DNA of 64,000 bases from positions 38,626,001 to 38,690,000 of the forward strand of contig OX597823.1 in the NCBI GenBank assembly GCA_951406725.2, read 5' to 3'. The translations under genes and the position numbers were made by a program. This stretch comes from Octopus vulgaris. Taxonomy: Eukaryota. Each line of letters opens with the position of its first letter. The stretch's first letter is position 1. The notes beneath the pieces were generated by a model. That model searched no databases. It was given only the letters and a program-made list of their open reading frames with translations, and was not told where the DNA came from. This document shows positions 13,801-64,000 of the stretch, piece by piece.

Positions 13801-16067
13801 AGATCAAAGCCAACTGGGGCTTTTTCTAGAGAATAACATAAAGCATGTCAATCTCAGTAGATCCCAAGTCAGTGAAGGCAATGGCTACATAATCCTGTAT
13901 TCTAAACAGAAGAATTAAAAATAAAACAGCTATTTATGGATTGGCAGAGAAAGCCATCAAGAAATGTTTCTCTCAGAATACAGGTAAAAATTAATATTTG
14001 TAAGTCTATTCAACCTATAGCAACATGTTGAAAAATGAAAAATCAAAAGGTGTTTAATAGGTGGAAGGAGGAAACAATAATGAGGATTCAACCTAATGGA
14101 AGAACAGAACAACAATAAGCTTACTTTATGGGACACTTTAAATTCTGGAACTTCAATATTTTCAAGATGTCTCAGTAACGATTCTGTTGATAGGTCCTGA
14201 AAAACAAATAGTGATTTTTAAGAAAAAAACTTTGCATTGATTGTACATGAACTTATTTTATTGATGGCAAAAATCAGCTTCCACAAGATTTGAACTTAAA
14301 ACCAGTGGGTACAAAATAACAGAAATTAAATAAAGGATAAATAATGGGTCACTATCTGCCCCAAAAGTATTGTTTAGGCAGTGAGCTGGTAGAATCATTA
14401 GCATGCTGGGCAAAATGCTCAGTGGCATTTCGTGTCTTCATGTTCTGAGTTCAAATTCTACTGAGGTCGACTTTGCCTTTCATCCTTTTGGGGTTGATAA
14501 ACTAAGTACTAGTGAAACACTGCAATCAATGTAATCGATTAGTCCCCTCCCCACAAGCTTCAGGCCTTGTACCTATAGTAGAAAGGATTATTATTATTAT
14601 TATTATAGACGTTGCACAGTATACAGTATAGACGTTGATTGAAGATATAGTGTTTCCTGGGAGTTTGTACTATCTGTCAAGTCACAACAAGGACCTTAGA
14701 CAGACAGTACTTTATGCAATATGCGTGCAGTTCCAAGTAATGCCGACTTTTGCAATACATCTAGATTGTAGGGTATTTCTAAAGTTTTCAGATGTCTTGT
14801 CAGATAGGGTGGTATTGAACCCAATGCTCTGATGACAGTAGGGATAACCTTTATGTTTGACTGTTGTAGCTGGCGCATCTTAGTGATCGCAATTCTCAGG
14901 TCTCCATATTTATCTACCTTTTCTCTTTCATGACAATATGTTGATATCATGGTAGTGCCACATCAATTATTAGGCACTCGTTTGTCCCTCCTAAAGGTTA
15001 CTATATCTGGCATTTGATGCTCTAACACCCTGTCTGCCTGGTAATTAAAGTCTCAGACAATTTTGGCCTTTCCCTTTTCGTCCATTACATTTTCTGGTGT
15101 ATGTTGGTACCAAGCACTCATAACTTCATATCCATACTTATGGCATAGTACCCAGTGAAGGTTTTGGGCTACCTTGTCGTGTCTAAGTTTGTACTCTTTC
15201 TGTGACATTCACAAGCACTAACAATGTGAGTCACACTTTCGACGCTCTTCCCACACATTCTGCAGAGGTCCGTTGCACTTGTGTGATATATATTCCTTTT
15301 CAATGCCTGGTTCTGGGCAGTGATAATTAGGTTTCCAGTATTCCTTTTTTAGGTTACCCTTGTTGAGCCACATCCATGATGCTTCTTGGTCTTTTAATTT
15401 GTTGGTTTCACGGTGGAACTGACCATGTAATTCCACACAGAGTAGGATTTCTTCTCTCTCATTGGCTGTTCTTGATCAAAATTCATGAGCACTCTCAAGT
15501 CCATTTTTGTTAACTCCTTCTGCACTAGCAGCATACTTGTTTGCTGTTTACCAAATATTCTGCCATGTTTCTTCTTTTTCTGTTGATGCACTCCCATATG
15601 TTAATTAGCCCACATCCACCTTTAACTTACAGGTGGAGAGCAGCATGCATTGACATTGTCTTTTGGGTAGTGCAATCGAGCTGGTCAATCTTCATTTGTG
15701 TCCATTCTGGTTTATTATTATTATTATGATGATGATTATTATTAAGGTGGTGAGTTGGCAGAATCGTTAGCATGCCAGACGAGCTGCTTAGTGGCATTTC
15801 AACTGTCCTTACTTTTTGAGTTCAAAATTCTGCTGAGGTCGACTTTGCCTTTCATCCTTTCAGGGTTGATAAAATATGTACCAGTTGAGTATTAGGGTTG
15901 ATGTAATCGACTAGTCCTCTTCCTACAAATTTCAGGCCTTGTGCCTTTAGTAGAAAAGATTATTATTTTGATTTGTCTCGGGTTTGGTGTTATTTCTGCT
16001 ATGGATTATGTGGATAGCAGGTTACTACCTGTAACCTTAGTATCCACAAGTTTTCAGCAATCTTTCA

Positions 16068-20482: not shown

Positions 20483-22763
20483 TATAAATATATAAAGGGA
20501 AAGTTTACGAAAATAAACAAAAGACGAAGGCAGGTGGTGTACAAACAAACAGATGTATTAATATAGCGCGCTCAGGAATAGAAAAAGTCTTTTACGTTTT
20601 GAGCCTACGCTCTTCTACAGAAAGGTACACAGAAAAAACAAGGAGAGAAAAAAACGAGAGAAAAAAAATGTGTGTAGTAGCTAACGATCTCTATATATAT
20701 ATATTCTTTTACTCTTTTACTTGTTTCAGTCATTTGACTGTGACCATGCTGGAGCACCACCTTTAGCTGAGAAAATCGCCCCAGGACTTATTCTTTTTAA
20801 GCCTAGTACTTATTCCATCAGTCTCTTTTGCCAAACCATTAAGTTACAGGGACGTAAACACACCAGCATCAGTTGTCAAGCGATGTTGGGGTGACAAACA
20901 CAGACACACACGCATATATATAAACACACTATATATTCATTCTTCACTCATTTATTACTGTTCTTATTCTAACTCATGTCCATTGTCTGGAAATCTTTCA
21001 TCACACATCTGTAACCTCTTCAGTGACACTTCCTGTCTTCGTGTGTACTCTTGCTCTGTTGCTTACCAACCACATGGTTTCGGGTTCAGTCCCACTACAT
21101 GGCACCTTGAGCAAGTGTCTTCTATTATAGCCTTGGGCCAACCAAAGCCTTGTGAGTGGATTTGGTAGACAGAAACTGAAAGAAGCCCATCGTATGTATG
21201 TATGTATATATGTGCTATTAAGTTAGACATGGCCTGGACCAATCTTTGGTCGAAACATATCTAAGTTTTATATGTATCTAAGTTTATATATATATATATA
21301 TCTATCTATCTATCTATGATTGATTGATTGATTGATTCTAGTTTCAGCTTATGAGCTGTGGCCATGCTGGGGCACCGCCATTTGGTGTTGCTACTTGGTT
21401 TCACTTCATGGGGGCTTTCTAGCAACTGCTATTTGGTGCATGAGAGAGTTCAATGCAGCTGCCCTCATCTGCCCCTCCTGCCGTGAAGTTGGTTCATCTG
21501 GGACACCTGACAGGAAGAGATCCAGCTTCATTTTAAAGACATCTGTATCCACCCCATGCAGGTCTCTCGGGTTCTTCGGGAGGATATTGAAGAGCTGTGG
21601 GCCTCGGAAGCCCAGGCTATCACAGAATCTTGTCCTACATCTTGATGGCAGGTTTGGAGTCCTAGGCACCACGCAGTGGCGCCCAGTTCTGGCATTTGCG
21701 TAACTCTCGATGCCAAAGTTCAGGACACTTCCCTCCAGGATCTTCCAGATGTATATTATGGCATATCTTTCCCGCCTACGCTCCAGGGAATATAATTTTA
21801 ATCTCTTGAGTCTTTCCCAGTAGCTTACATTCTGCATAGAGGCTATCTTCTTCGTGTAGCTTCGTTGGATCGCCTCAAGTTCTGTGATCAACTTGACACT
21901 GGATGGTGACCATAGCTGAGAGCAATAGTCAAAGTGGCTTAGGACAAGTGTCTTCCAGAGGACCATCATGGTTTCTTGTTCTCTTGTTCTAAAGGTTCTA
22001 AGAATCCATCCAGCCAACCGTCTACATTTCATTGTCAGTTTAGCAACATGTACATGAAAGGTCGCGTCATCACTCATGTGAATACCCAGGTCACGCACTG
22101 ATTGTGCCTCTGGGATTGCAATCCCTCCGGGTCCAGTGTATTCATTGGGTATTGCATTCAGTTTTGCATGCTGATAGTATAAAGCTTGAAACTTTCCAGC
22201 ATTGAACTGCATGCTATTCTTTTCAGCCCACTTGTATATTTCGTCCAGCTTACATTGCAGGTGTTTAGTGTCCTCAGGGTTCTGTATTGCCTGTGAAACT
22301 TTTGTATCATCTGCATAACTTGTGATCGTGGCTCTCTGCGTGGCTGAGGGCATGTCTGAGAGGGCCATTATGAACAGTAGTGGTCCCAGAACAGTGCCCT
22401 GCGGAACACCGCTCACTATTTGTGTGTTAATGGAGGTGGCCCCATTGGCTACTACCACCTGACTTCTATCCTTCAGAAAGTCATGAAGCCATTCTCCCAG
22501 TTTTCCAACTATGTTGAGATCACGCAGTTTGTGACATATCATTCCATGATCGACTTTATCAAAGGCCTTTGCAAAGTCGAGATATATCACTTCCACATTT
22601 GAGTGGTTGAGCAGCCGTTTCAGCACCCAGTCATAGTGTTGTAGGAGCTGAGTTAAACAGCTTCTCCCTGGTCGGAAACCATGTTGGGTGTCGGGCAGCA
22701 AGTCATTCTCTTCAAGGAAGGTGATCAGCTTCCTTCTGACTATTCGTTCCATGACCTTGCTGA

Positions 22764-22799
<36 letters not shown>

Positions 22800-23300
22800 T
22801 AGATACATATAAAACTTAGATATGTTTCGACCAAAGATTGGTCCAGGCCATGTCTAACTTAATAGCACTTATATACATACATACATACGACGGGCTTCTT
22901 TCAGTTTCTGTCTACCAAATCCACTCACAAGGCTTTGGTTGGCCCAAGGCTATAATAGAAGACACTTGCCCAAGGTGCCATGTAGTGGGACTGAACCCGA
23001 AACCATGTGGTTGGTAAGCAACAGAGCAAGAGTACACACGAAGACAGGAAGTGTCACTGAAGGGGTTACAGATGTGTGATGAAAGATTTCCAGACAATGG
23101 ACATGAGTTAGAATAAGAACAGTAATAAATGAGTGAAGAATGAATATATAGTGTGTTTATTTAGCAAAAAAACAAAACAAAAGACCATCCTGAAACACAA
23201 CAATATATATATATGTGTGTGTGTTGTGTGTGTGTAAATACATACATATATATACATACATACATACATATGTACATATACATACATATACATACATACA

Positions 23301-25373: not shown

Positions 25374-28300
25374 ACCACCAAGATGCATTGTGTTTCAGTA
25401 AACTGGTTTATTTAGTAGTAAAAGCAACAGTCATGAGTATCATCAACTGGAATCAAATGAAGACTGGCCTGAATTTTTTCAAGATTAAATATAATCAGGA
25501 CATGAAAGCCACATGAATTTAGTGATACTTAAGAATTCAAATCTTCCACATTTGACCACAGTAAGGCACAGTAAAGTGCAGCAACAAACATCGCCATAGA
25601 TGTATTAAGAGCCATCAAGATATTTATATATTTATATAAACCACAAACAGCTAATGTGTTCACTATACTAGAACCATGAACATCAAATATGTTTAGCACA
25701 CTAAAACCATAAACAACAATGTGTTTATTGTATTATAACAATGAACATCTCATATGTTTACTATACTGTAATCATGGGCAATCATGGGCAAATGTATTTT
25801 CTATGCTAGAATCATGAAAATATAATATGCTTGGTGGATAAGAAGCCTGAACATCTAATGTGCTTACTGTATTAGAACCATGAAGATCTAATGTGTTTCC
25901 TCTACTAGAACTATGAAGACCTAATGTGTTTTCTATATTACAACCATTCACATCTAATGTGTTTATTGTACTAGAACCATGAATATTTAATGTTTTTGCT
26001 AGAACCATGAACACCTAATATGCTAAAAATCATCATCTTTGTCATTTAATGTCTCTTTTGAATCTGAATTTAGTTTTAAAACAAGCATTACTCTCTGTTA
26101 AAGAGTAACAAAACATTTAGCAAAATATGAAGCAGTTACAAAACTCAGAAGAAATCTACAAAAATACTAAAAGAAAAACCATAGAAGTAATGATATTTTA
26201 AAGTAATTTGTTTCGTTTTCAAATGCAGTCAATAGTTTTATAAAAAAACTCATTCCAGTACACAAAACACAAGTAAGAAATAAGGAATAAGTTTATTTGG
26301 TTTAGCACTTCTGAATTTAAATAATATTGTTTTGAAAGTGGTTTGTGTAATCTTCCTTCACAGTTGAATCAGCTTTATGATTTGTGATAATGGATTAACT
26401 TTTGACAGAGAAAGTTTTAAAAAATCCAATAAAGAATTTAAAAAAATGATATTTGAAGCTTACCTCGGCTACTGATTGAGCACTTTCATTCTTAGACCAA
26501 AATTTGTTGACCAGATTTGCTTTTTGACTAAAGGAACTTTCAAACTGAAAGCAAAAACAAAAGAAAAAGACAAAAATTGAAATTACTTAGTACATACAAA
26601 ATAGTACCTACAAAGTACATTAGTATATACAAAAATATCAAAAATATATAAAGATGAATGTATATAAATATTAGTTATAGTAAGGTTTTATTTTAAAGCA
26701 AATTTTAAAATAACAGTAGCATATTTTCTCATAAAGGACTTGATATTAAGAGTAGAGTCAAATTAATTTTAAAATTCATTTTGTAATAAATCTGACCCAA
26801 CAAAATAGAATATATTTAAAAATTCATTTTGCTTGCTGGTTTATTCGAATAATCCAAGAGATAAAACTCAAAATCCCAGTCAAAATGAATTTTTGCAATG
26901 AAAATGAAAACATTAACATCCAATTTCAATCAGTAGAACTAATCCAGTTTCAAGAATGAGGTGTGTGATGAGATCTGAAGCAGCAACAAGAGAAACTCTA
27001 GAAAGTGTGATTTATGTAACTTGGGAAAAGGATTGAAGATAGGGATAAGATGTTACAGGAAAGTAGTTTGTTAGATTTAGTTTTTAACCCTAAAGCCATA
27101 TCTGGCCCAAAATATTCCACCGGTTTTATGTTCAAACTGACTAGATCCAGCCTATCATACCTACCCTACAATGTCATTCTAAAAATAAGCACACACATCA
27201 TTGAAATCTTGAAGCTATGAGATGATGCATGATTAATTTAAAACAATATGATAAAATGATCATTACACTCGATAGTATAATCTGAATGCTAATGGGTTAA
27301 TGAAAAGTTAAAATAACACATTTAGACACATTAAATCTAACATAGACTAACATAATACTTTCTTTGGACAGTGACTGTAATATAGACTAATGTGACCAAT
27401 TCATTAGAAATTTTAAGTTACAGCAGTCTCGGTTATATAAAAAAAAAATATCATACAATGAAAATGGATGAAACTTGTGAAAGAGAGAGAGCGCTAGAAA
27501 GACATAGGATGAAGTGGTGAAGACTGATCACAAGTGACACAAAGCAGAGAAAAAGGAACAGCGACAAATTGTGAGACATAGTGCTAGGGAAGAAGGACCT
27601 ACTTTTGGAAGCATGGCAAAATGGATGTTAAAAGGCGGTGGTCATGGAGGTTGGGATGTATAATTTGTCTAAATTTGGGTTGTCTCACTCATTACATTTG
27701 TTAATTTTCCATCTATTTCCTCTCACCTCTCTGTTACCCCCTCATCTATTACTCACCCTCCCACCTATTCACTGCACCATGCCAACTGTGTAACAATTAA
27801 TAACATTACTGTTGCTGACTTCTACCACCACCATTAACCACCGCATCTCTCTTTCTGATCACAATGCTAGAGTACAAAGGATAGTGTAAGACCTGTCTGG
27901 TGAACATGCTGTTATCATACTTCTTAATAGTTAATTATTGATCTCTCTCCTTCACATCACTTATTGATTCCACCACTCTCCTGGTTGCCCATCTTTATTG
28001 CCATCTCTCCTTTGCTTTATCACTCATTGTTGACATACATCACATACACTCTCTCTTACTTTCATAATTCTCTCTTTCATCACTTTGTCACCTTCCTATC
28101 ATTCTCACTTCCTCAATTATGCTACTCACACTATTTTTCTATTCAATCTCCTTACCAACAACCATGTAGCTACCCATCACTGTTTCTCTTCCATTACTCC
28201 CTCCTCTATCACCCTCTCATCTTTGTTTCTCATACTATCTCGTCTTTCGTGTTATTCTTCTCTCTCTTTGACATCACTCTTTAAAGCAACCTCTCTAGTA

Positions 28301-31359: not shown

Positions 31360-34300
31360 CACACACACTCAATGAATGTCCACACAATTTCTATCTGCTA
31401 AATTCACTTACAAGGCATTGGTCAGCCTAGGCGTGTAGTAGAAGACACTTGCCTAAAATGTTGTGCAGTGGAACTGAACCTGAAATCACATGGATGCAAA
31501 GCAAACTTCTTAACTGCACAGCCACGTTGTTTATAGTTTATTGCTTATTTATATTTGTTGCCGTGGGAACAAAAATATAAAAATAGCTGAATAGATGAAA
31601 GATATCTGACTGGAAAATTAGAGGCTTGTATTATCCCTAACATAAGCAGTATCTTAGATAAGGTACTAAACTCTCTTGTGTCACTTATCTCTAACACTAA
31701 TATAATGAGAAATTAATTGGAAATGATATTTATTTTGGTCAATGGAACTAAGGTGAAATCTTGTTAGATTTTATTAACTTTCAACTTTTCAGGCATTTTG
31801 AAGTTTATAAACAGATCAAGTTAGATGAATGAGAGAGAAATATGGACAGACAGCCTTACCTGGTTACTGTAGGACTCAGTGAGGTGGGGAACAATAACTT
31901 GTACATGTCCTTTAGTCCCCATTGTACCAGATTCAAGAAGAGCACGCTGGTTGGTGACGCAACGACTAGAAGGGGAAAGGAGTCAAAATGAGAAAAACAT
32001 AATTGAACACATCCACATATACATGCTCATGCACACAAACGTGCACACACTCACACACACACATACCCAAGTTGATCATATTGACCCCATATTTTTATGA
32101 CTGGTACTTATTTTATCGAATCTATTTGTTGCACTGCTAAGTTACAGAATATAAGCAAAGAAACTGCTTTTTCATGCTGACACCAATACATATATCATTA
32201 CCAGAAAAGCATAAAGTTTGCATCTAGTTCATAATTGTGCTCAACAAGTGTTTCAAGATAAACACCATCAAATGTAAAATTACATAATTATGATACATAC
32301 CTAATTTAGATAAAATCAAGTCAAATTTATTCAAAAATAATGTTTAACCAAATCATCAAGAAGGCTATGCTTTGTTGAGCACAATTCAAGTATGAATAAT
32401 ATGCGAAATTTATGTTTTTCTGCTAAGTACATAGCTTTTAAAAATCATTTAAGTCAATTATAAACATCCATGCAAGTTGATCCCACTTAGATTTAACAAT
32501 TTGCTATTTACTGAGATTTTAGTTACTATGGATTTATTTTTTGATGTCTATACATCAATTATCTCACTCCCTCTTTATATCATATAAAGAGGGTAATGTT
32601 CACCACTCACTACATTCTCCTTTCTCTGCCTCTCTATTTTTCACTTGCCTTTGGCACTCTCGCAAGTTTGCTGCCTATTCATCCAATCCAATATTCTGTA
32701 CCACTTCAATTATATACACCTCCCTGTGCCTTGAGGGTATGCTCCAACACATCCTCACCACCATTCTCTCTCTTTTCCAACTGAAGTAGCCATGCTTCTC
32801 CTTCACTGCAAGATACCTGTTTCTGTTCCATCTACCATATTCTAACCTCTTATCACCTGGCACAAAGCCACCTCCCACAATACTACTCCTCCTCTTTGAG
32901 TGAGCATTGTCATGGAAGTTACTTGATGACCTCACAGCTGCTGGTTCCACGTAATAAGCACCTAGTACACTCTGTTAAGTGGCTGGTGTTAATAAGAAAC
33001 CAAAAATATGCCAAAGCAGAGAGTAGAGCTTGGTGCAGTCCTCTGGCTTGCCAGCTCCTGTCAAATGGTCCAATCCATGCCAGCATGGAAAAAGGATGTC
33101 TGATGATGAAGATGATTTATACATATATGGAGTCTGGAGCAGTCTTCCAGCTTGCCAGCCCTAGTCAAACCATCAAACCCATGCCAGCATGGACAACGAC
33201 CATTAAATGATGATGATGATGATGATGATATGTATGCATGTATATATATATATGATATAGTAGAACCTTGCAGTATGAGTGCATCATTGTACGAGGAATT
33301 TGCTGTACAAGTTGAGGCTCGTGCAAATTTTTGTCTTGAAGTATGAGTGGAAATCCGCAGTACAAGAAAGTTTCATACAAGCTACCGCTAGTTGGTGCTC
33401 ACACATGCTCTCCCAACAAGCAAAGTCTTTGCTCGCTCAGTTCATGTGTATCTCATGGAAGCATCTTTGTTGTGTTTTTCCCACTGTTTTTGTTTAGTTT
33501 TGTGCGCTTTTTGCTATTATTTTATGATAATTAGTTGTGTTAGCCAAATCCTAAGAATATAAGTGCAAAGGACAGTGCTGAGAAGAAGAAAAAGCTTATT
33601 ATGATAGAATTGAAGAAGGAAATCGTTGATAAACATGAGAGAGGAGTGTATATAGTGGACATAGCATGTTAATACGACTGAAGCAAGTTGATGATCTGCA
33701 CCATCCTAAAGAAAAAGGATGAGATCAAGGCCATTACGACAGCAAAGGGTGTCTCCAGGCTCTCTAAGCAACACACATCTGTCTACAAAAGGATGGAAAA
33801 ATTGCTTGTGGATCAATGAGAAGCAACTTGCAGGGGATATGATTATGGAGACCATCATCTGCTAGAAAGTATGAGCACTATATGGGAATCTTCTGAAGCA
33901 GAACCCTAGAATGACAACAAAGGAGACATCAGCAGATGCATCTAAGGCCAGTTGTGGCTGGTTTGATAATTTCAGGAAGAGGACTGGTGTTCACAGTGTC
34001 ATCAGATATGGAGCAGCAACGAGTTCTGACATGAAAACAGCTGAGGATTTCATGTGTGAATTCTGTCAGCTCATCGCAGCTGAGGAGTACATTGTACAAC
34101 AGGTATTCAACTGTGATGAAACTGGCCATTTTTGGCAAAAAAATGCCCAGAAGAACCTACATGACTGCAGAAGAGAAGAAAATGCCAGGCCACAAGCCTA
34201 TCAAAGATAGGCTAACATTTGCCCTTTGTGCCAATGTGAGTGGAGACTTGAAAATTAAGCCACTCTGTGTCTACCATTCTGAAAACTTATGAGTGTTCAA

Positions 34301-37300
34301 GTTGCGCAAAATCCTGAAAGAGAAGCTGCAGGTCATGTGGGGGGCAAACATGGAAGCCTGGGTCACCAGGCAATTCTTCTCCAAGTGAGTCAACCTTGTC
34401 TTCAGACCAACAGTGAGAAAGTATCTTCTGGAGAACACTCTTCAACCTCAACTATGTTCCTGCTCACCCTCCTAACCTTGAAGATGATGTCTTGGATGAA
34501 TTTAAATTTATAAAAGTTATGTACCTTTCATGCAACACCACCACTATCTTGCAGCCCATGGACCAACAGGTAATTTCTAATTTTAAGAAATCGTACACCA
34601 AACACCTGTTTCTTCAGTGCTTTAAAGTCAACGAAAATACAAATCTAACCCTTCAGGAGTTTTGAAAGGAGTACTACAACATTGTAAAATCATTGATATG
34701 ACCTGGCAGTATAGCAGAGGACAGTGTAATGGAGAATGCTATCTCTATGAGTGACATAAAGGTTGTGTTGGTAAAGTGGCGGCATGTTTCTAAATTTGTA
34801 GAAAAATATCATCCTGAAAAAGTAGCTACAAGTTATAGAGCTACTTTATTTAATGACACTGCTCTGGCACATTTATGTAACATTTTAAGAGGCAGGAAAA
34901 AAGCAGACTTCTCTTGATATGTTTGTAATGAAAACACCTGCAAGTGTAAAAAGTGAAGAAAGTGTGTCTAAAAAGCCTAAATTAAGCGAAGTGAGAGAGA
35001 AACATCAGAAATTGTTCTTGAAGTCTTAATGGAAGGAGATCCACCTTCCAAACAGTAATCCTCCTCCTCCTTGCTCTATTGTCTTCCTTACACACAGATC
35101 GTCCCATCTTTAAGGTAATTCAGTTAATAAAATCAGTTTACATATTTCTTATGCATTCTCTTTTTATAATTGTCATTTATATAATTTATATAATTTTTTA
35201 TAATTATCATTTTACTTGTAGCTACACCATTTGTTTATTTTGGAGTGGTTTTGGTGGGCTGGAATGGATTAATTATATTTTAGTTAATTTCAATGGAGAA
35301 AACTGATTTGTAAAATGAGTAAATCGTAAAGCGAGCTCAGTCATAGAATGAATTAAAGTCGTACTGCAAGGTATCACTGTATACTGAGAAATGCATAAAT
35401 ATAGGCAACTACATCAGTACAAGTCTATAAACAACATGAACATGATTGAAAATAGATATATGGAGTTTATTTTTATGAATTAGAACAAGTTGTCTGCCTC
35501 TCTTACCTGTCCATATAGCGCCGTGCTTCAACATTGTCTAATGCATTAACTAGAACATGTTGGTTTTCGAAGAAAGTATCAGTATAGATTGTGTGTTCTG
35601 TTTGGGGACACACTAAACAAAAATAGGAAAAATGAAAATGTAAGAAAAAAGGTTTTTGTATTTTATTTATCAGAAAAAATATTTCAATGTAATAAAGGTA
35701 AAATATAAAAGATAAAGATGAAAGGTAAGAATAAGGTATACCTTTAATGATAGCTTATAATGACGGTATAGGGCAAATAATTTCAGGGAGATAATTATGT
35801 TGATTGTATTGAACTTGATACACAACATTGAGAACATCAGATGATAAAATTAATTAGGGAAAACTAAAGTGTACACACACACACAGTTTTGGAAGTATTA
35901 CCAAGGGTTTATTTGAGAAATTTCCTTAGAGTTTTTCTAAACCTTTGATAAGAGTTTTCATTTCTTATACTAAATCTAAATTACAGCCTCCACGTGTATT
36001 TATTCAGTTTAAAAGCTTATCTGTGATATCATGCTTTAATACTTGGTATTTGTAGGCACTGAGTTTTAATAACAGTCATAAAGATTGGTGCTGACTTCAT
36101 TGTTTTGTAACAATGTTAAGACTTGAAAGGTATGGCAGTTTGTCAGGTACATTTTACAGCAGGCCAGGCCAATTTGAATTACATTGCAGGTCACTTTAAT
36201 CACAGAAAGGTTTTGAGAGCCACTTGTATAATAACAGAATTGAAAGCATTTTGCTTTCTCATGCTATTATTACAATAATGAATGAACGATTGTTAATTCA
36301 ATATGAAATATTATCATTGCAAAAACAATATTCTTTTATTTGTTTAAGTCATTTGACTCTGACCATCCTGGAGCACTGCCTTTAGTCGAACAACTCGACC
36401 CTAGGACTTATTCTTTGTTAGCCTAGTACTTATTCTATCGGTCTCTTTTGCTGAACCACTAAATTATGGGTACGTAAACACACCAACATTAGTTGTCAAG
36501 CAATGATTTGGGAGTGGGGAACAAACACAGACACACAAACATTTACACATATATATACGATGGGCTTCTTTCAGTTTCAGTCTACCAAATCCACTCACAA
36601 GGCTTTGGTCAGCCTGAGGCTATAATAGAAAACACTTGCCCAAGGTACTATGCAGTGGGACTGAACTTGGAACCATGTGGCTGGTAAGCAAGCCACACAG
36701 CCACTCCTGTGCCTAGTAGTATCATTCTTTTTTTACTTTTCATTACAATCCTTAATTTTTGATAAATTAAAAAAAATATTTGTTTAAATAAACCTGTTTC
36801 AAGAAAGTATCAAGCGAGCCACAAGATAGTTGCCTGTGAGCTGCAGGCCTTAGGTTGACCAGCCCTGCTTTAGAGTGAAAGTCACCATATATATATATAT
36901 ATATATAAGGTGTATTCCATTAGGAATGTAGTAGAGTACAAAATAGAGCTCATTCACCCTTAGAATTACCAAATAACATGTAGTATTATGGTAAACTTCC
37001 GAATTTAGGTTTAGGCATTCATCACGTGTGAAAATAAAACTGAAAAAATAGAATCAACAACGAGTATGGTTAGATAGCTATTTAATAAACACTACACAGG
37101 TTTTGATACAACATAGATCCACATATACACAAGATATAAAGTAAGCAACTTACACAAGATTTAAAGTAAGTATCATCTGAGAAGATACATCTGGATCCCA
37201 TTATACAGGTAAACCATTGCTTACTTAAAATCTTGAGTATATGTGGATCTATGTTGTATCGAAACATGTGTAGTGTTTATTAAAAAGCTGTCTAACTTTA

Positions 37301-40386: not shown

Positions 40387-43300
40387 GGGTCGACTACAAA
40401 AAGGCGTTTGAGGATCGACTACAAAAAGGCGTTTAAGGATCAACTACAAAAAGGCGTTTAAGGATCGACTACAAAAAGGTGTTTGATAGCATCCCCCACA
40501 CATGGATCCTCGAAACACTAGCCATTAACAAAGTAGCACCAACAATTATAAAATTCATAGGACACTCTATGAATAAATGGCAAACAGTCCTACACCTCCA
40601 AACAAAAGAGGGACTCATGAAAACCAAAGCCATCCCCATAAGAAGAGGAATATTCCAGGGAGACACGCTCTCTCCACTCCTTTTCTGTTTGGCACTGTCA
40701 CCTCTATCTGATATGCTAAATAGAACTGGATGCGGATATAAATGTTATGGCAAAACGATCAGCCACCTTTTATATATGGATGACCTAAAACTATAAGCTG
40801 CAAATGACAAACAGCTGGAAACACTATTAAAGACAGTTCATGGATTTATCAAAGAAATAGATATGAAATTTGGATTAGAGAAATGCGCCAAAGTAACCCT
40901 GAAAAGAGGAAAACTAGTTAAGAGTAGCAACATCACACTAGATAAAACCAATGAAATAAAAGAATTAGACCAAAGCCAAACTTACAAATACTTAGGAATC
41001 CATGAACTAGATAAGACACAACACACACAAATGAAAGAGAAAATAAAAAAAGAATATTATAGATGAGTTAGATCAATGCTAAAAACAAGATAATAGGTAT
41101 TAACACTTTAGCTGTCCCAGTTATAAGTTACAGCTACAATATCCTTAACTGGACACTAAATGAACTGACCAAAATAGATAGGAAAACAAGAAAAATAATG
41201 ACAGGATCTAGGATGCATCACCCAAAATCTGACATATAAAGACTATATATACAACGTATAGAAGGTGGTAGAGGCCTTATACAGCTGGAAAACTACTATA
41301 AAATAACTACCACAGGACTGCAAAAATATCTACTTCAGAAGGAAGGAAAACTGATACAAATAGCGGCAAAACACGAGCAAAACAAAAAACTGTTCTCAGT
41401 ATTTAAGGAAGCTGACAAATACAAACAAGAAATCATACCACCTAATAAATATGAAGAAGAAGAAGAAACAACAAAAGCTATAAAACAAATGAAATCCAAA
41501 CTAAAACTAGAACAGTAAAGAACCATGATAAAACGATGGCAAGAAAAGCCCCTTCATGGTAAATACTGGACTAAACTAAATGCAAAAGAAATAGACAAAG
41601 AAAAATCCCAGCAATGGTTGAGAAGCTCAGGACTCAAAGCAGAGACAGAAGGGTTTTTAATTGCAGCACAAGACCAAAGCCTCCCCACCAGAAATTACCA
41701 AAAACATGTAATGAAAAGAAATATAACAAGTAACTGCAGAATATGTGGAGATGGACAAGAAACAATAAATCATATTATCTCTGGCTGCCCAGTCCTGGCT
41801 AAGAAGGAATATATTCACAGACATGACAGAGTTGGAACCTACATACACTGGAAGCTATGCCAACATTATGGAATAACAACAGAAAGAAGATGGTATAGGC
41901 ACACACCAGAAAAGGTCACAGAAAACGAGAAAGCAACCATACTCTGGGATATGCCGATACACACAGATAGAGAAATTAAGGCCAACAGACCAGATATAGT
42001 TGTCAGAGATCATGAAGAAAAAAGATGCTTTCTAATTGATGTATCAATACCGGCAGATGACAAAGTGTCTCTAAAAGAAATGGAGAAACTTTCAAAATAC
42101 AAAGACCTGGAAATAGAGGTAACCAGAATGTGGAATCTAAAAACAGAAACAATTCCTACCATAATAGGTGCATTAGGCATGATAAAAAAATATTCAGACA
42201 AATACATAACAAAAACACCAGGACTTACAAACACATATAACATACAGAAAATTGCACTACTAGGCACTGCACACATCCTACGCAGAACACTTTCCATACA
42301 ATAACCATCAGAGCATCACAACAAATCACAGCACATACCCAAGGCACACAGAGCTGCGCTCGGTTAAAGTGAAAGCACGCTATAAAAATAAAACTACTGA
42401 ATAATAATAATGATGATGATGATAATACTCTGATGCCATACCAGGCAGTAGCTCTCATGGCTTCTGGTCTTAACTGATTGTAAGTGTTCACATGTACATG
42501 TTTTGTCTTGGTGTAAAAGATGGGTCACAGCAAATATTCTGCTCAATACCACAGATTTGTTTGTCAGTTGCTTGATCTTCACCAGCTGAGCATGTCCCTT
42601 AGTGGCTGACAATATGTGCATCTCTAATTACAAGCAATAGTGGGGGAGTATCATAGCCATGTGTTGAGAGGAATTCTTTGGGGTTTGAATAATTCACCCC
42701 TGGAAACAGTATTGTTTCTTTCATCATCCTTAAATAAACATATCATGCACATATGGTTGTGATGTATGTGCCTGGTGTACCCTTATCAGACAGGTAGTCA
42801 TGATGGATATATTGGGTTTCATGTATTGGTACCCCACGGTCACTTAGATAGCATGTGCTACTCTTTCACTCAACAATAATAATAATAAAAATAATTACAG
42901 TCATGAAGAAGTTTATAATATGTGTTAAAGTCATTTACATTAAATTACTCACCATAAACAAATGGATGTTCCTAAGTTTATATAAGGTGTTTTCTCCAAT
43001 GCACAGTCTTAACAAATCATAACGGTCATTCCTTGAAGAGAACAAGCATCAACACATTTTTATAAAGAGAAAGAAACATTAATGGGTAATGTTTTACAAC
43101 AGACTTAAACTTTTAACACAAAGGAATCCCTTTCTTCTACTGTTAGGGAAGATTCAAAATGAAAAGTATTGATTTCTTGATCAAATTAACGACTTGGAGT
43201 AGTAATGGGCTGTGCAAATAGAGGAGTTCATACATTGATGCAGCTCAATCTGTTTAATATAGGACTTGAGTCTCTCTCAATAAACTTCCTGATCATTTTT

Positions 43301-62100: not shown

Positions 62101-63194
62101 GACAAGAAAAAGCATGTATTATTATAGAGGTTAGCTACCCAGCTGATGTGAACATCTCTTTGAAAATTAAAAAGAAAGAGGATAACTATGGATAACTGCT
62201 TTGATACCCCAAGCTTCTATATCCAGATTATGAATTCACATTTATACCAATAATAATTAATGTACTTGTAAACAAAAACCACTGAAATTCAAGTGATATT
62301 ACTTGTTTCCATTCTTCAGTGAAAACGTGTCTGGCCTTAGATAAATACTATCTGGTTTGGAACAGAAGAGGGTTGGTGACAAGAAGAGCATCTGGACATA
62401 GAAAATCTGCCTAAGAATATTCCTCCTGTCCCATATAAGCATAGAAAAGTGGATATTAACTGATGATAGCTACATCATCATGGTAAACATTGTTTTTACA
62501 TCTCTTTTTTCGATGCCACAATAAGGGTTTGGATGAAACTTTAAGGAAATATTCTATGCCAGATGTTCTTCCTGATGCTAACCCTTGTTAATTTTTTGAG
62601 CAATATATTTCACTGGTCTTCACAGGCTGAACAGCTGAGCTAAGGGACATACTGAGACAAAGACATATGTCATTTCTGCCTCAGCAGTGTCAGTGTGAAG
62701 ACATAAGGGGACAGACAAACACACAATAGGCATCCATACAGTTTCCATTAATAAAATTTTGAAACTTCATCAACAAGGTATTGGTTGAACCAATGCTATA
62801 TTAGAAAACACTAGCACAAGGGTTGCACAGTGGGAATGAACCCAAAACCACATTGTTGCAAAGCAAACTTCTTATCCACCACAGAACCATCAATGCCTAT
62901 ACATACATACAAACATACATACAAACACAAACATACATACATATATAAACAATTGCAGCGTGGAAGGTGTTTATAAGACATTTAAGAAACACACAAAAAC
63001 TGTTAGATTCACTTCAACATTTAAATTTGTCAAAATATTTGCGTCGCTTTGAGACCATGACCTGTTCACTGACAAAATTCTGTGACGCAGCATGAAATTT
63101 CTTAAATGGCTTATAAAAACCTTCTACGCTGCAATTGTTTTCGTTCCAGCATACGATCTCAGATCAGGTCACTTGCTATGCAAGTACATCTCTG

Positions 63195-63242
<48 letters not shown>

Positions 63243-63743
63243 GTACATGCATGGATCAGATTTTGGCACTCTGTCAATTATGATGACGAGGGTTCCAGTT
63301 AACTCATCAACAGAACAGTATGCTCCTAAAATTAATGAGCAAGTGGCTAAGCATTCCACACACGTGTACCCTTAAAGTAGTTCTCAGGGAGATTCAACAT
63401 AACATAGAATGTGACAAGGCTGGCGTTTTGAATTACCAGCTGAGTTGACTGGAGCAATGTGAAATAAAGTGTCTAGCTGAAGGATATAGCAAGCCACTGG
63501 GAATTGAATTGACAACCATCAGGCTATGTTCTTGAAATTCTTCATTTGTAGAGCCTATTCTTTATGATAAATATTCAAAGAATACAAACACACACACAGA
63601 ACCTACAACATCATAATCATCTCCATTGTACCTGATAATCTTTTAAATATGTGAGATCAGTGGAATCCTGAAGAGGAATTGAGGTGGTGTTTACGGTGAC
63701 GTACGGGTTTAATTCAGCAATTCTCTTACAACAGGCCTCAGCT
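1749..63743 (-). CDS. UBA6: Ubiquitin-like modifier-activating enzyme 6 (E1), 31 coding exons in window, 5' part outside window
   Basis: Manually spliced exons total 2773 nt with consistent phases. Motifs: VGCGAIGCE (ATP binding), [26 protein letters not shown], catalytic PYCTLKSFP (UBA6-type KSFP rather than UBA1 KNFP), [18 protein letters not shown]-terminal PGPPLRYYF as in vertebrate UBA6 (PGPPVRYYF). Confidence 0.93.
2654..2748 (-). CDS. UBA6: UBA6 exon (UFD domain)
   Basis: [31 protein letters not shown]; ccag/gtaatg. Confidence 0.92.
3063..3291. mobile_element. piggyBac-like MITE (TTAA target, CCCTTTAG termini)
   Basis: TTAA-CCCTTTAG...CTAAAGGG-TTAA; related copies at 17155-17382, 27084-27300 (inverted) and ~9320-9530. 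Confidence 0.75.
3885..3972 (-). CDS. UBA6: UBA6 exon (UFD domain)
   Basis: [29 protein letters not shown]; tcag/gtaag. Confidence 0.92.
4240..4690 (-). mobile_element. Decayed DNA-transposon transposase fragment (possibly Sola-like)
   Basis: Minus strand reads [42 protein letters not shown], resembling a widespread metazoan transposase motif; superfamily is recalled, not searched. Confidence 0.55.
5412..5963. mobile_element. Old fold-back element with hammerhead remnants in both arms (Penelope pLTR-like)
   Basis: Arms ~5412-5645 and ~5740-5963 are reverse complements; CTGACAA..ATCC ATAAT GGCT GAAACGCAT at 5761-5800 and its minus-strand mirror at 5586-5625. Confidence 0.65.
6462..6589 (-). 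CDS. UBA6: UBA6 exon
   Basis: [42 protein letters not shown]; ccag/gtgag. Confidence 0.93.
7572..8080 (+). mobile_element. HERO-like non-LTR retrotransposon 3' fragment (RLE endonuclease), degraded
   Basis: [12 protein letters not shown](P)..[35 protein letters not shown] followed by the 3' UTR. Confidence 0.75.
8183..8296 (-). CDS. UBA6: UBA6 exon
   Basis: [38 protein letters not shown]; tcag/gtctgt. Confidence 0.93.
10186..10350 (-). ncRNA. Conserved structured intronic element, copy A (candidate H/ACA-like RNA)
   Basis: Shares an identical 23-mer and 12-mer with 13840-13985; AGAAAA box, stem-loop and terminal ACA+3 nt. Confidence 0.4.
10493..10572 (-). CDS. UBA6: UBA6 exon
   Basis: [26 protein letters not shown]; gcag/gtgag. 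Confidence 0.93.
11475..12657 (-). mobile_element. Mariner transposon, pseudogenised, one TIR retained
   Basis: Fragments [49 protein letters not shown]; TIR TATTGGGTCATCCCATAAATAATG at the right end. Confidence 0.92.
13285..13384 (-). CDS. UBA6: UBA6 exon
   Basis: [33 protein letters not shown]; aaag/gtgag; phase fits neighbours. Confidence 0.85.
13840..13985 (-). ncRNA. Conserved structured intronic element, copy B (candidate H/ACA-like RNA)
   Basis: Homologous to 10186-10350; AGAGAA box, same stem-loop, terminal ACA+3 nt. Confidence 0.4.
14125..14196 (-). CDS. UBA6: UBA6 exon
   Basis: [24 protein letters not shown]; tcag/gtaag. Confidence 0.9.
14377..14590 (+). mobile_element. tRNA-derived SINE with (TTA)n tail
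   Basis: Box A-like GAGCTGGTAGAAT and box B GAGTTCAAATTC; sister copies at 15745-15960 and ~9068-9180. Confidence 0.75.
14607..15711 (-). mobile_element. R4/Dong-like non-LTR retrotransposon, decayed 3' fragment, in (TAA)n
   Basis: [48 protein letters not shown]; TAA arrays on both sides. Confidence 0.85.
16069..16160. repeat. (TAT)n and (TA)n microsatellites
   Basis: Direct reading; many other TA/CA/TAC/GAT arrays (e.g. 23203-23480, 31200-31370, 49455-49623). Confidence 0.95.
17440..17509 (-). CDS. UBA6: UBA6 exon
   Basis: [23 protein letters not shown]; ctag/gtttgt; phase fits. Confidence 0.87.
17760..18110 (+). mobile_element. Ancient CR1/L2/Jockey-group LINE C-terminal remnant
   Basis: CSYIWDGS...LDYIQK.A..M.G....IQPLTH...LFYHYYN...SSEL. 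Confidence 0.55.
18646..18709 (-). CDS. UBA6: UBA6 exon
   Basis: [20 protein letters not shown]; ccag/gtaag. Confidence 0.92.
18971..19003 (+). ncRNA. Degenerate minimal hammerhead ribozyme motif
   Basis: CTGAAGT-A-GGAC-ACT-GTCC-GAAATGTTA; segment ends at (TA)n near 19150. Confidence 0.55.
20587..20623 (-). ncRNA. Degenerate minimal hammerhead motif in a ~200-bp segment between (TA)n arrays
   Basis: Minus strand TTT-CTGTAGA-A-GAGC-GTAG-GCTC-AAAACGTA-AAAG. Confidence 0.5.
20705..20915 (-). mobile_element. SINE (TTGTTTCAGTCATTTGACTG family)
   Basis: Matches copies at 36335-36540 and 31030-31200, and an inverted copy at ~49360-49452. Confidence 0.7.
20920..23203. repeat. Near-perfect ~370-bp inverted repeat (20920-21290 / 22790-23160) with a 43-bp one-sided extension, enclosing a LINE
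   Basis: Arms differ at only about 4 positions; each contains a hammerhead motif, a SINE piece and a GACCAA-TCT-TTGGTC-GAAAC motif. Confidence 0.92.
21318..22765 (-). mobile_element. 5'-truncated CR1/L2-group LINE with open RT frame (ORF 21406-22752, 448 aa)
   Basis: [45 protein letters not shown]; (AATC)n 3' tail; inserted in (TA)n. Confidence 0.93.
23773..23824 (-). CDS. UBA6: UBA6 exon
   Basis: [17 protein letters not shown]; tcag/gtaag. Confidence 0.92.
24339..24433 (+). ncRNA. Degenerate hammerhead motif
   Basis: TTCCT-CTGATGA...CATT/AATG...GAAACATACATA-GGAA (CpG-decayed ACGTACGT palindrome inferred). Confidence 0.5.
24505..24922. mobile_element. Fold-back element between (TA)n arrays, right arm extended ~40 bp
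   Basis: Arms ~24505-24685 and ~24703-24885 are reverse complements around a ~20-nt loop. Confidence 0.8.
25063..25191 (-). CDS. UBA6: UBA6 exon
   Basis: [43 protein letters not shown]; ctag/gtaag. Confidence 0.92.
25650..26025. repeat. Degenerate 33-bp minisatellite, about 11 units
   Basis: Consensus ~CATCTAATGTGTTTTCTATACTAGAACCATGAA. Confidence 0.85.
26464..26544 (-). CDS. UBA6: UBA6 exon
   Basis: [27 protein letters not shown]; tcag/gtaag. Confidence 0.92.
29073..29162 (-). CDS. UBA6: UBA6 exon carrying the catalytic cysteine
   Basis: [30 protein letters not shown]; ctag/gtaag. Confidence 0.95.
31860..31965 (-). CDS. UBA6: UBA6 exon
   Basis: [35 protein letters not shown]; ctag/gtaag. 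Confidence 0.95.
32188..32428. mobile_element. MITE-like element with imperfect long TIRs
   Basis: CAGAAAAGCATAAA..AATTGTGCTCAACAA versus TTGTTGAGCACAATT..TTTATGTTTTTCTG. Confidence 0.6.
33258..35379 (+). mobile_element. Tigger/pogo DNA transposon, pseudogenised, both TIRs present
   Basis: [43 protein letters not shown]; TIRs (C/T)AGTAGAACCTTGCAGTA / TACTGCAAGGTATCACTG; TA flanks. Confidence 0.92.
35507..35612 (-). CDS. UBA6: UBA6 exon
   Basis: [34 protein letters not shown]; ttag/gtaag. Confidence 0.95.
36160..36867. mobile_element. hAT/Charlie-like MITE with two nested SINEs
   Basis: CAGGCCAGGCCAA / TTGACCAGCCCTG termini; imperfect 8-bp flanks TTTTACAG / CTTTAGAG. Confidence 0.5.
36560..36715 (-). 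mobile_element. High-copy tRNA-derived SINE (GGGTTCAGTCCC / AAACTGAAAGAAGCCC family)
   Basis: Copies near 10910, 16911, 21058, 22870, 30155, 31375, 38110, 39270, 49185, 58392, 62730. Confidence 0.8.
37030..37342. mobile_element. Fold-back element with degenerate hammerhead (37174-37275, +)
   Basis: Arms 37030-37148 / 37217-37342; CAT-CTGAGAA-GATAC...GTATC-GAAAC-ATGT-GTA-GTG. Confidence 0.75.
37741..37770 (-). CDS. UBA6: UBA6 30-nt micro-exon
   Basis: LKIDAHQNK (vertebrate IKIDAHLNK); tcag/gtaaag; phase 1-1. Confidence 0.88.
38467..38515 (-). CDS. UBA6: UBA6 exon
   Basis: [16 protein letters not shown]; gtag/gtgag. Confidence 0.9.
38625..38702 (-). CDS. UBA6: UBA6 exon
   Basis: [26 protein letters not shown]; gcag/gtaag. 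Confidence 0.95.
39633..39710 (-). CDS. UBA6: UBA6 exon (GxGxxG nucleotide-binding loop)
   Basis: [26 protein letters not shown]; ttag/gtttgt (donor chosen by phase). Confidence 0.92.
40386..42400 (+). mobile_element. R4/Dong-like non-LTR retrotransposon, 5'-truncated, inserted in (TAA)n
   Basis: [30 protein letters not shown]; ORF 41525-42304 with CRIC..H..C knuckle, RHD and PD..D..K..KY restriction-like endonuclease; a few stops. Confidence 0.93.
42425..42880 (-). mobile_element. Probable SINE-like interspersed repeat
   Basis: ~450-bp segment bounded by AAT/GAT tails; family recalled from octopus repeats, only one copy here. Confidence 0.45.
42953..43031 (-). CDS. UBA6: UBA6 exon
   Basis: [26 protein letters not shown]; caag/gtgag. 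Confidence 0.92.
44519..44580 (-). CDS. UBA6: UBA6 exon
   Basis: [20 protein letters not shown]; acag/gtaag. Confidence 0.87.
44700..45740. repeat. Degenerate complex tandem repeat (~130-bp subunits, ~650-bp higher-order duplication)
   Basis: Recurrent ATATCTACAATTTTCTGTGAA and CTGAGTATTCGAAAATGTAAACA; 44701-44960 parallels 45350-45630. Confidence 0.7.
45820..46968 (-). mobile_element. Non-autonomous Helitron
   Basis: Minus strand: A|TC 5' end, 3' hairpin CCCG-TGCAACGC-CGGG then CTAG|T, no target duplication. Confidence 0.85.
47436..47986. repeat. Fold-back with ~180-bp arms (47436-47615 / 47778-47986)
   Basis: TCATTTAATTAAACAATGTAAGTATT / AATACTTACATTGTTTAATTAAATGA outer ends; complementarity along the arms. 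Confidence 0.85.
48055..48565 (+). mobile_element. RTE-LINE 3' UTR or derived SINE with ~58-bp internal tandem repeats and (GAT)n tail
   Basis: 5-6 units of GTGGCACATAAAA(A)CACCATCCGAGCGTGGCC...; same end seen at 1-33, 28640-28845, 33000-33230, 60398. Confidence 0.8.
48645..48788 (-). CDS. UBA6: UBA6 exon
   Basis: [48 protein letters not shown]; tcag/gtaag. Confidence 0.95.
48932..48998 (-). CDS. UBA6: UBA6 exon
   Basis: [22 protein letters not shown]; ctag/gtctgt; phase fits. Confidence 0.85.
49625..50790 (-). mobile_element. Extremely AT-rich decayed Penelope-like element(s) between (TA)n arrays
   Basis: Minus-strand traces KLSMKI* and [12 protein letters not shown] resemble the GIY-YIG C-terminus; shares a ~65-bp motif with 21213/22813; hammerhead at 50560. 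Confidence 0.5.
50560..50653 (+). ncRNA. Type-I minimal hammerhead ribozyme with intact core
   Basis: CUGAAGA, long helix II (UGACUGUA/UACAGCCA, UCGAAU/AUUCGA), GAAAC-GAUC-GUA with palindromic helix III; helix I only 2-3 bp. Confidence 0.7.
51210..52175 (+). mobile_element. Old non-autonomous Helitron containing a nested HINE/DINE-1-like element (51746-52149)
   Basis: TATATAAAACTGAGAATGTGTGTG start and CTAG|T at 52172; nested element has ACCTCC(A/G)CCA / TGGCGGAGGT sub-terminal repeats, terminal hairpin and (CAGA)n. Confidence 0.55.
53012..53059 (+). ncRNA. Type-I minimal hammerhead, U3 variant, in a ~280-bp segment between (TA)n arrays
   Basis: GUCU-UUGAUGA-A-GGGAUAU-AAUAA-AUAUCCU-G-GAAAC-AGCU-GUA-AGAC. 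Confidence 0.7.
53543..53619 (-). CDS. UBA6: UBA6 exon
   Basis: [25 protein letters not shown]; caag/gtaag. Confidence 0.9.
53868..54068. mobile_element. Palindromic MITE (~200-bp hairpin)
   Basis: CAGGATTTAAATTTGAGCT / AGCTCAAATTTAAAACCTG; inner CATGTATTTTCAGGCAA / TTGCCTGAAAATACATG. Confidence 0.8.
54747..54809 (-). CDS. UBA6: UBA6 exon
   Basis: [21 protein letters not shown]; tcag/gtaag. Confidence 0.9.
58682..58791 (-). CDS. UBA6: UBA6 exon (FCCH domain)
   Basis: [36 protein letters not shown]; ttag/gtaat. Confidence 0.92.
59910..60033 (-). CDS. UBA6: UBA6 exon (FCCH domain)
   Basis: [41 protein letters not shown]; ccag/gtagg. Confidence 0.93.
60198..60320 (-). CDS. UBA6: UBA6 exon
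   Basis: [41 protein letters not shown]; tcag/gtatt. Confidence 0.94.
60398..61108 (-). mobile_element. RTE-clade LINE 3' end
   Basis: [29 protein letters not shown]...W, repeat-containing 3' UTR and (GAT)n tail. Confidence 0.85.
61849..61929 (-). CDS. UBA6: UBA6 exon
   Basis: [27 protein letters not shown]; ctag/gtaag. Confidence 0.93.
62947..63197. mobile_element. Penelope-pLTR-like fold-back with tail, carrying a G3:C8 hammerhead variant (63023-63078, -)
   Basis: Arms 62947-62989 / 63098-63140, 57-bp extension to (TA)n; minus strand UUUGUCA-GUGAACA-G-GUC..GAC-GCAAAUAUUU-UGACAAA. Confidence 0.7.
63632..63743 (-). CDS. UBA6: UBA6 exon (most 5' exon in window)
   Basis: [37 protein letters not shown]; tcag/gtacaa. 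Confidence 0.93.
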
Positions 63744-64000
63744 CTGAAAATATAAATATCAATAATCACATTAGAAATTATGAAGAAAGAAAAGGAAAAA
63801 ATGCTGTTTTAATATCAGTTGTAAAAGGGTTAAACCTAGGGGAGACAATCTGTTACCGTCAGAGTTATTTTCCTTGAAATAGTCCATTTTTAAGAAAATA
63901 TCAAGATAATTTTGTTTCTCTTCTCTTACAGTAATAATGTACTTTTTATTTGTCCCTTTAGCTATAAACACAAAACATTGTGTCTATATATCAACAATGA

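Follow-up and report, generated by a model that had tools for sequence, protein, structure and literature searches.

A Penelope-like element of Octopus vulgaris with a putative hammerhead of natural G3:C8 core in its pseudo-LTR, and a decayed copy in a UBA6-like gene

The window analyzed here is the whole stretch of 64,000 nucleotides of Octopus vulgaris DNA (contig OX597823.1, positions 38,626,001 to 38,690,000), in which a small repeat lies inside a gene resembling UBA6. The upstream exon of this host gene (63632..63745, minus strand), which serves as context only, resembles UBA6 chains (E 1e-7) and, at E 0.72, another E1, and the downstream exons match E1_FCCH and UBA_E1_SCCH. As the flanking UBA6-like exons are on the minus strand, the element is intronic and its hammerhead motif reads in the sense of the gene, as the original prediction had it; the orientation itself carries no signal and is taken as incidental. 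Other repeats are also interspersed in the window: a LINE reverse transcriptase (RT) fragment (452-aa frame, 21406-22764, minus strand) stands between 397-bp inverted repeats that are 98% complementary (20917-23163), and a 33-bp unit is repeated in tandem in about 8 copies at 25646-26016. Fragments at 40437-42304, 14696-15475, 11616-12529 and 33875-34917, which by eye we take to represent a non-LTR element with C-terminal restriction-like endonuclease, a mariner transposase and a Tigger-like transposase, lie in introns of UBA6.

The element under study is an asymmetric fold-back of 251 nt with a minimum free energy of -83.6 kcal/mol (z -6.4), which was equalled by 0 of 200 shuffles. Its arm 1 (62947..63093, minus strand) is a pseudo-LTR (pLTR) that runs from near the usual 5′ end of the repeat unit to the inner 3′ end at about unit position 150. 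Arm 2 (63098..63198, plus strand) is inverted and 5′-truncated, comprises unit positions 108-208 and holds the start of an open reading frame (ORF) of a Penelope-like element (PLE), with the ATG at 63106. The stretch that separates the two 3′ ends, the PLE 'tail' (63141..63198, plus strand), is present on one arm only and abuts a (TA)n/(GA)n microsatellite target (63197..63242), in agreement with the predicted asymmetric fold-back with a 57-bp tail ending at (TA)n. A TA/CATA run flanks the other end, so that no target duplication is readable at this copy; duplications of about 8-12 bp accompany other copies of the family (e.g. L004, L021 and L029). Inverted, 5′-truncated copies with a tail at one end are described as the insertion footprint of EN+ PLEs in the accessible part of 10.1101/2021.04.23.441226, and the tail as the stretch between two internal RT start sites in that of PMC11167929; the fold-back of the window copy with its 57-nt tail is this usual footprint.

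On the minus strand of arm 1, sequence and family comparison place a minimal type I hammerhead motif with a G3:C8 core at 63026..63076, in a decayed state. Helix I has 7 bp, the 5′ strand UUUGUCA (63076-63070) being paired with UGACAAA (63032-63026). The core segment (63062..63069) reads G3 U4 G5 A6 A7 C8 A9, that is GUGAACA at 63069-63063 with G3 at 63069 and C8 at 63064, followed by an extra G between A9 and G10.1 before helix II. Helix II and loop II occupy 63043..63061; the 5-bp helix of the family (GUCGC/GCGAC) has lost two pairs here through CpG-type changes at 63058 and 63057, which leaves GUC/GAC. The return strand (63032..63042), assigned from the sequence and the family majority, consists of G12, C13 in place of the family A13, A14, the palindrome AAUAUU (63039-63034) as a helix III of dimer type, and U17 ahead of the helix I return, so GCAA replaces GAAA. 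From standard hammerhead numbering the cut is predicted between 63033 and 63032. The hammerhead-like layout anticipated for minus-strand 63078-63023 was thus found on reading the strand, together with the anticipated change of A13, a letter kept in 96 of 100 family arms.

In comparison with the family majority, the arm of the window copy carries A13C, the two changes that break helix II, a 5-nt deletion immediately past helix I and two other substitutions, and it is considered decayed on this account; it is predicted to be a catalytically dead passenger in the UBA6 intron. The 63-nt motif alone folds no better than its shuffles (z 0.27), therefore the case rests on the family and not on the window copy. 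Self-cleavage of the UBA6 pre-mRNA by this intronic copy, to which the gene-sense position within an intron might point, has almost no probability in our judgment: the copy has A13C and a weakened helix II, it is one among more than 7,000 that are even on both strands, and the fold-back would compete with the hammerhead fold in the transcript.

The copies of the repeat were tracked by DNA search of the source genome (2.8 Gb, 227 contigs). This gave 3,167 first-look candidates, of which 40 were scored and proved to be the window's own place and 39 near-full-length matches of 83-88% identity. A 19-nt pattern of the core context with positions 3 and 8 left free, searched along with its reversed form as a control, gave 7,054 exact matches spread evenly over both strands and 0 for the control, so the motif is not a chance occurrence; a 19-mer from the 3′ part of the unit matches 10,759 times. 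Conservation of the core was assessed in 100 arms spanning the motif, taken from L001-L030 and L112-L190, in which the core letters are kept at 94-100% (G3 96, C8 94, G12 96, A13 96 and A14 99). The majority reads GUGAACA...GAAA with an intact 5-bp helix II, which is the consensus that had been proposed as a check. The helices are arranged around the core in type I order, helices I and II being the predicted fold of the whole 208-nt unit in two intact copies (pair probabilities 0.65-1.0) and helix III a 6-nt palindrome; against function, the family also has U17 and a 10-nt palindrome, and the latter could pair A13 and A14 away. The changes which define subfamilies fall in loop II at 5 of 9 positions, and the sole one that affects a pair of helix I leaves a G-U pair in its place; the core is free of them, which is not significant alone as about one would be expected. 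The G3:C8 state is kept in all sampled subfamilies, from old ones to those of 98-99% identity.

Some observations on the copies stand apart from the core. A tail-less unit forms a tandem array with a period of about 170-190 bp at L458, and a tandem with a 3.45-kb period is found at L239. One inverted insertion recurs on contig C1 (L044, L046, L138, L174, L175, L179, L180 and L185) with identical junctions and similar flanks, hence it was amplified inside another repeat or duplication. A>G differences on the hammerhead-sense strand (L052:1411-1462 and L444:1268) make up 2-32% of the depth in runs presumed, by guess, to be RNA and less than 0.2% in other runs (X15, X17; also X6 at L444:1268). 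This looks like A-to-I editing of the arms, the runs being contigs of guessed RNA status with no DNA from the same individual.

When the family is compared with the hammerhead consensus (C3 U4 G5 A6 N7 G8 A9 / G12 A13 A14 A15.1 / U16.1 H17), it departs from it at positions 3 and 8 only, and as it carries G3 and C8 for C3 and G8 it is classed as a variant and not as a consensus hammerhead. Both states make a Watson-Crick pair, G-C in 6,459 of the 7,054 matches and C-G in sister families. The Rfam hammerhead models matched neither the window copy nor two intact G3:C8 copies, and three C3:G8 controls went unmatched as well. With regard to the claim that swapped cores escape standard searches, the minimal form is missed with either core, so the swap alone does not explain why it goes unmatched.

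The parent element was reached through the few copies that extend upstream of the common 5′ end, an extension which matches 749 times in the genome. Long inverted pairs, with copies 98-99% alike, carry an ORF in which a YVDD RT motif is accompanied by a CX3CXXC motif and by a GIY-YIG domain (Pfam PF01541, E 1.8e-5, passing the cut-off). Pfam RVT_1 found no match in this ORF, whose RT was recognized by the visible YVDD motif and by a homolog with the label RT-domain; a parent search based on RVT_1 returned mostly RT matches with identical scores. The link between unit and ORF is seen directly on both sides: the G3:C8 hammerhead lies about 1.0 kb behind the ORF stop codon in L272, L273, L274, L288 and L289, and the unit continues into the N-terminal coding sequence of the ORF in L443, L444, L450 and L455-L460, unbroken in L444/L274 with the ATG 92 nt after G3. 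A pLTR-ORF-pLTR copy of about 4.26 kb (G000:C4:22956.7-22961.0 kb) has a stop and frameshifts. No copy of the G3:C8 family with the whole ORF open was found in the genome, the longest open frame being of 1,025 aa and 5′-truncated. Among proteins of 288-917 aa, 186 are related to the parent protein at E 0.001 or better, and one of these, at 55% identity, is labelled Octopus vulgaris. A young 781-aa PLE from the GIY-YIG search (L095:5353-5390, L103, L070-L087), which has a second ORF upstream, was rejected as the parent, its pLTR being unrelated and carrying a U3:A8 hammerhead.

With an ORF for RT and C-terminal GIY-YIG linked to the repeat, tandem pLTRs (on C4) beside inverted 5′-truncated copies, and a tail at one end, the motif-bearing unit is the pLTR of a protein-coding PLE. 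The repeat family that was inferred around a non-canonical hammerhead therefore exists, with G3:C8 in the great majority of its matches, but it is not stand-alone, the unit running into the PLE ORF. It is improbable, in our assessment, that the 210-bp unit is an independent non-autonomous element or a retrozyme having a master copy and a circular RNA of its own. Short copies prevail in the sample, one 5′ end is common to 48 of 116 arms, upstream-extending matches are a minority (749 vs 7,054) and some tandem arrays occur (L458 and L239), all of which would suit such an element; however, the unit stops within the N-terminal coding sequence, into which it runs on at the loci given above, short and long copies have subfamily markers in common, and internal RT priming near the normal mRNA 5′ end explains the short copies. 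Non-LTR retrozymes are non-coding tandem repeats with no ORF, whereas this unit is the 5′ end of a coding element and its copies are mostly single or inverted.

The origin of the G3:C8 core was then considered through related PLEs in the same genome. A sister family, located by protein search and not by motif, has intact 1,312-aa ORFs which are 54.7% identical over 815 aa to the parent protein. Its hammerhead stands at the homologous place, ahead of the homologous ORF start and tail, and reads C3, G8 and GAAA; the 3′ regions of the two families gave nothing better than E 0.39 in blastn. The sister-form pattern matches 4,470 times in the genome and once for its control. In this family, whose 1,312-aa ORF has a long Asn-rich insert, the older copies carry A9 and the youngest C9 (L277:7226-7265 and L292-L321). 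A third family at L296, with an endonuclease remnant upstream, has GUCA/UGAC and the start of helix II in common with the G3:C8 family, and the two cores differ at 3 and 8 only. A fourth PLE group has U3:A8, so the Watson-Crick states of the 3:8 pair in PLEs of this genome are G3:C8, C3:G8 and U3:A8. The absence of 3-8 compensation, which had been named as evidence against the motif, was accordingly not what the sister families displayed, as they hold C3:G8 at the same place. From the two outgroup families, C3:G8 is likely ancestral for this clade, and the swap is likely a tolerated natural variant of a putative ribozyme, because related PLEs keep the usual C3:G8 order.

Paired changes between the families were counted in an alignment of 14 hand-picked sequences from three or four independent lineages, in which families B, C and D had been collected by a pattern fixing most of their core. 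Of the 15 pairs examined, 6 are altered at both partners, namely three pairs of helix I, one each of helices II and III, and 3:8; slid controls gave 0-3 such pairs, and at least six doubly changed pairs were also reached by 59 of 500 shuffles; pairing cells amount to 86.7% vs 76.8% in shuffles.

The ends of the insertions were mapped in 117 arms from 79 loci, which were picked by the 3′ pattern only, all lie on contig C1 and represent most of the first 100 places in the list of matches. The two 3′ ends appear directly as groups at unit positions 144-152 (51 arms) and 202-208 (61), with 5 arms ending elsewhere. Among the 116 arms reaching position 100, the 5′ ends fall at 1-5 in 48, at 6-58 in 45, at 59-62 (the predicted cut) in 1, at 63-70 in 8 and later in 14. 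Accordingly 93 of the 116 start upstream of the predicted cut site and run across it, and only 1 has its start there, so that most insertions were copied from RNA uncut at this site; the lack of clustering at the cut counts against catalysis. The eight arms truncated just 3′ of helix I (L112, L126, L142, L148, L150, L156 and L170 are among the loci) may reflect a stall of the RT at this helix, or else microhomology in AT-rich sequence. Inverted pairs (0.2-5 kb) are common and their junctions vary. In 13 of 25 short copies the letter before the 5′ end is a non-templated G, while the 7 long copies have C or T at this position; the G may be the cap copied during reverse transcription. The fixed 5′ end was also read as a splice acceptor, from a branch-point-like and a pyrimidine stretch before it, and this was set aside as no joint supports it; a transcription start with a cap-derived G fits better. 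Apparent 3′ extensions in L031 and L096 were likewise dismissed as element sequence, each being unique in the genome.

These ends suggest how the element may move. The pLTR promoter would start a capped RNA about 20 nt before helix I, in which hammerhead, start codon and ORF would follow in this order. The RT of the element would prime internally at two sites about 57 nt apart, within the opening codons of the ORF; both strands of a TA-rich target would serve for this priming, and the copy would reach back to the RNA 5′ end, giving 210-bp pLTR-only and inverted copies, that of the window included; no separate non-autonomous family would be needed for the short copies, and read-through from tandem copies would produce the long insertions. 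Cutting by the hammerhead would be slow and would take place in a dimer joined by AAUAUU or with the aid of protein, and cleavage would act on a minority of the RNAs or at another step, such as resolution of tandem transcripts or a change in ORF translation. The slow-cutting proposal fits the low in vitro rates of PLE hammerheads and the partial activity of the engineered swap, as far as the accessible literature goes. We consider it probable, from sequence comparison, that the window holds a decayed minimal type I hammerhead of a PLE pLTR whose lineage is G3:C8 where its sisters are C3:G8, and that the intact form is likely a slow, dimer- or protein-assisted ribozyme under selection.

A clearly less favoured reading, which still deserves weight, is that the motif is a hammerhead by descent only, catalytically dead or irrelevant in this lineage, its helices kept for another role, such as the binding of protein or the control of the promoter or of translation, with G3 and C8 fixed successively by drift. 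Inserted copies derive from uncut RNA (93/116), insertion in vitro is unimpaired by hammerhead mutants according to the accessible part of PMC11167929, and A9C has swept the youngest sister family; this last change stands in copies with intact ORF, so that an active PLE can spread with an altered core, and selection on catalysis may be weak. Against this, U4, G5, A6, G12, A13, A14, A15.1 and U16.1 are unpaired or weakly paired and yet are kept across families whose flanks are beyond blastn detection, the two changes restore exactly the tertiary pair, and G3:C8 persists in every subfamily sampled, whatever its age.

Drift would also be in line with the G3-G8 copies, which stand about 15-fold above background on several subfamily backgrounds. 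They number 223, or 3.2%, where the C>G background is 0.21% (4/1,867), and the U8 and A8 copies together (163) match the background; no C3:G8 was present among the first 100 of the 223. The G3-G8 change is common to both arms of several inverted pairs (L031, L466-L494). These copies appear older (divergence 4.4% vs 2.3%, p 0.003), but any set selected by a mutation is older on average, and they belong to several backgrounds and not to one haplotype, so they may stem from a relic intermediate or from a mutational hot spot, and their age was discarded as an argument for an ancestral intermediate. Returning to a catalytic hammerhead, we offer only as a tentative and rather unlikely extension that G3:C8 is a working natural core which arose via a G3-G8 intermediate still visible as the 223 copies, and that the sibling states (G3:C8, C3:G8 with A9C, and U3:A8) would show PLEs tuning the ribozyme down, with uncut capped RNA kept for insertion and a minority cut.

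The largest survey of PLE hammerhead variants is reportedly that of Lunse et al. 2017. Metazoan PLE pLTRs are known to carry minimal type I hammerheads, with an extra nucleotide 9/10.1 and a palindromic helix III as typical features (Cervera and de la Pena 2014, PMC4209133). The octopus family is alike in its pLTR position, type I fold, extra nucleotide 9/10.1, G10.1-C11.1, palindromic minimal helix III and many dispersed truncated copies; its helix I has 7 bp vs the 4-5 bp reported for Schistosoma. The accessible part of that paper, supplement file 2 included, holds C3-G8 and a Schistosoma U3-A8 variant and not G3-C8. Natural 3-8 covariation is likewise common to the octopus family and Perreault et al. 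2011 (PMC3088659), where the section on natural core variants has U3-A8 only and the G3-C8 transversion pair is absent. For the wider literature on hammerhead core variants, Octopus and cephalopods included, the accessible texts gave G3-C8 only as an engineered form (PMC3884650, PMC11167929 and PMC8495972), and Lunse et al. 2017 or Przybilski and Hammann 2007 could already report a natural one. In a metagenome scan with a loose G3:C8 pattern, which gave at least 120 stretches, 1 of the 80 loci tested among the matches listed has 4-bp helices I and II, and these matches were treated as chance.

The closest functional comparison is the Poseidon element PAc of Anolis (Frangieh et al. 2024, PMC11167929), whose hammerhead loses cleavage with either C3G or G8C and regains part of it when both are combined; its tail is delimited by two internal sites of RT initiation, and uncut RNA is the main template in vitro. 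As far as that paper is accessible, the octopus PLE resembles PAc in the two internal RT starts and tail, the AT-rich targets, the uncut RNA template and the same double swap, which in PAc is a partly active laboratory mutant and in octopus the wild type of a whole lineage. The two differ in the start codon, which is downstream of the ribozyme in the octopus PLE and inside helix II in PAc, and in the tail (about 57 nt vs 30-40). Neptune/Nematis-type EN+ PLEs (Craig et al. 2021, 10.1101/2021.04.23.441226) are alike, in the part of the text available, in the C-terminal GIY-YIG, the preceding CX3CXXC, inverted 5′-truncated copies, one-end tail and microsatellite targets.

On comparative evidence for a kept fold, G3:C8 is a real and abundant natural hammerhead variant in a PLE pLTR. 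The natural U3:A8 form was already known, and relative to the literature found the new element appears to be G3:C8 as the natural form of a lineage; the chemistry would be unsurprising, given the partial activity already known for the engineered double swap. If G3:C8 cleaves, a core rejected as a mutant by descriptor searches would be the wild type of a retrotransposon lineage that has succeeded in making thousands of copies, and therefore genomic counts would underestimate hammerheads, and searches should accept 'any pair' at C3 and G8. Sister families that differ at defined core positions within one genome (G3:C8, C3:G8, A9C and U3:A8) may provide a natural comparison for the question of why PLEs keep a hammerhead when uncut RNA is the template of insertion.
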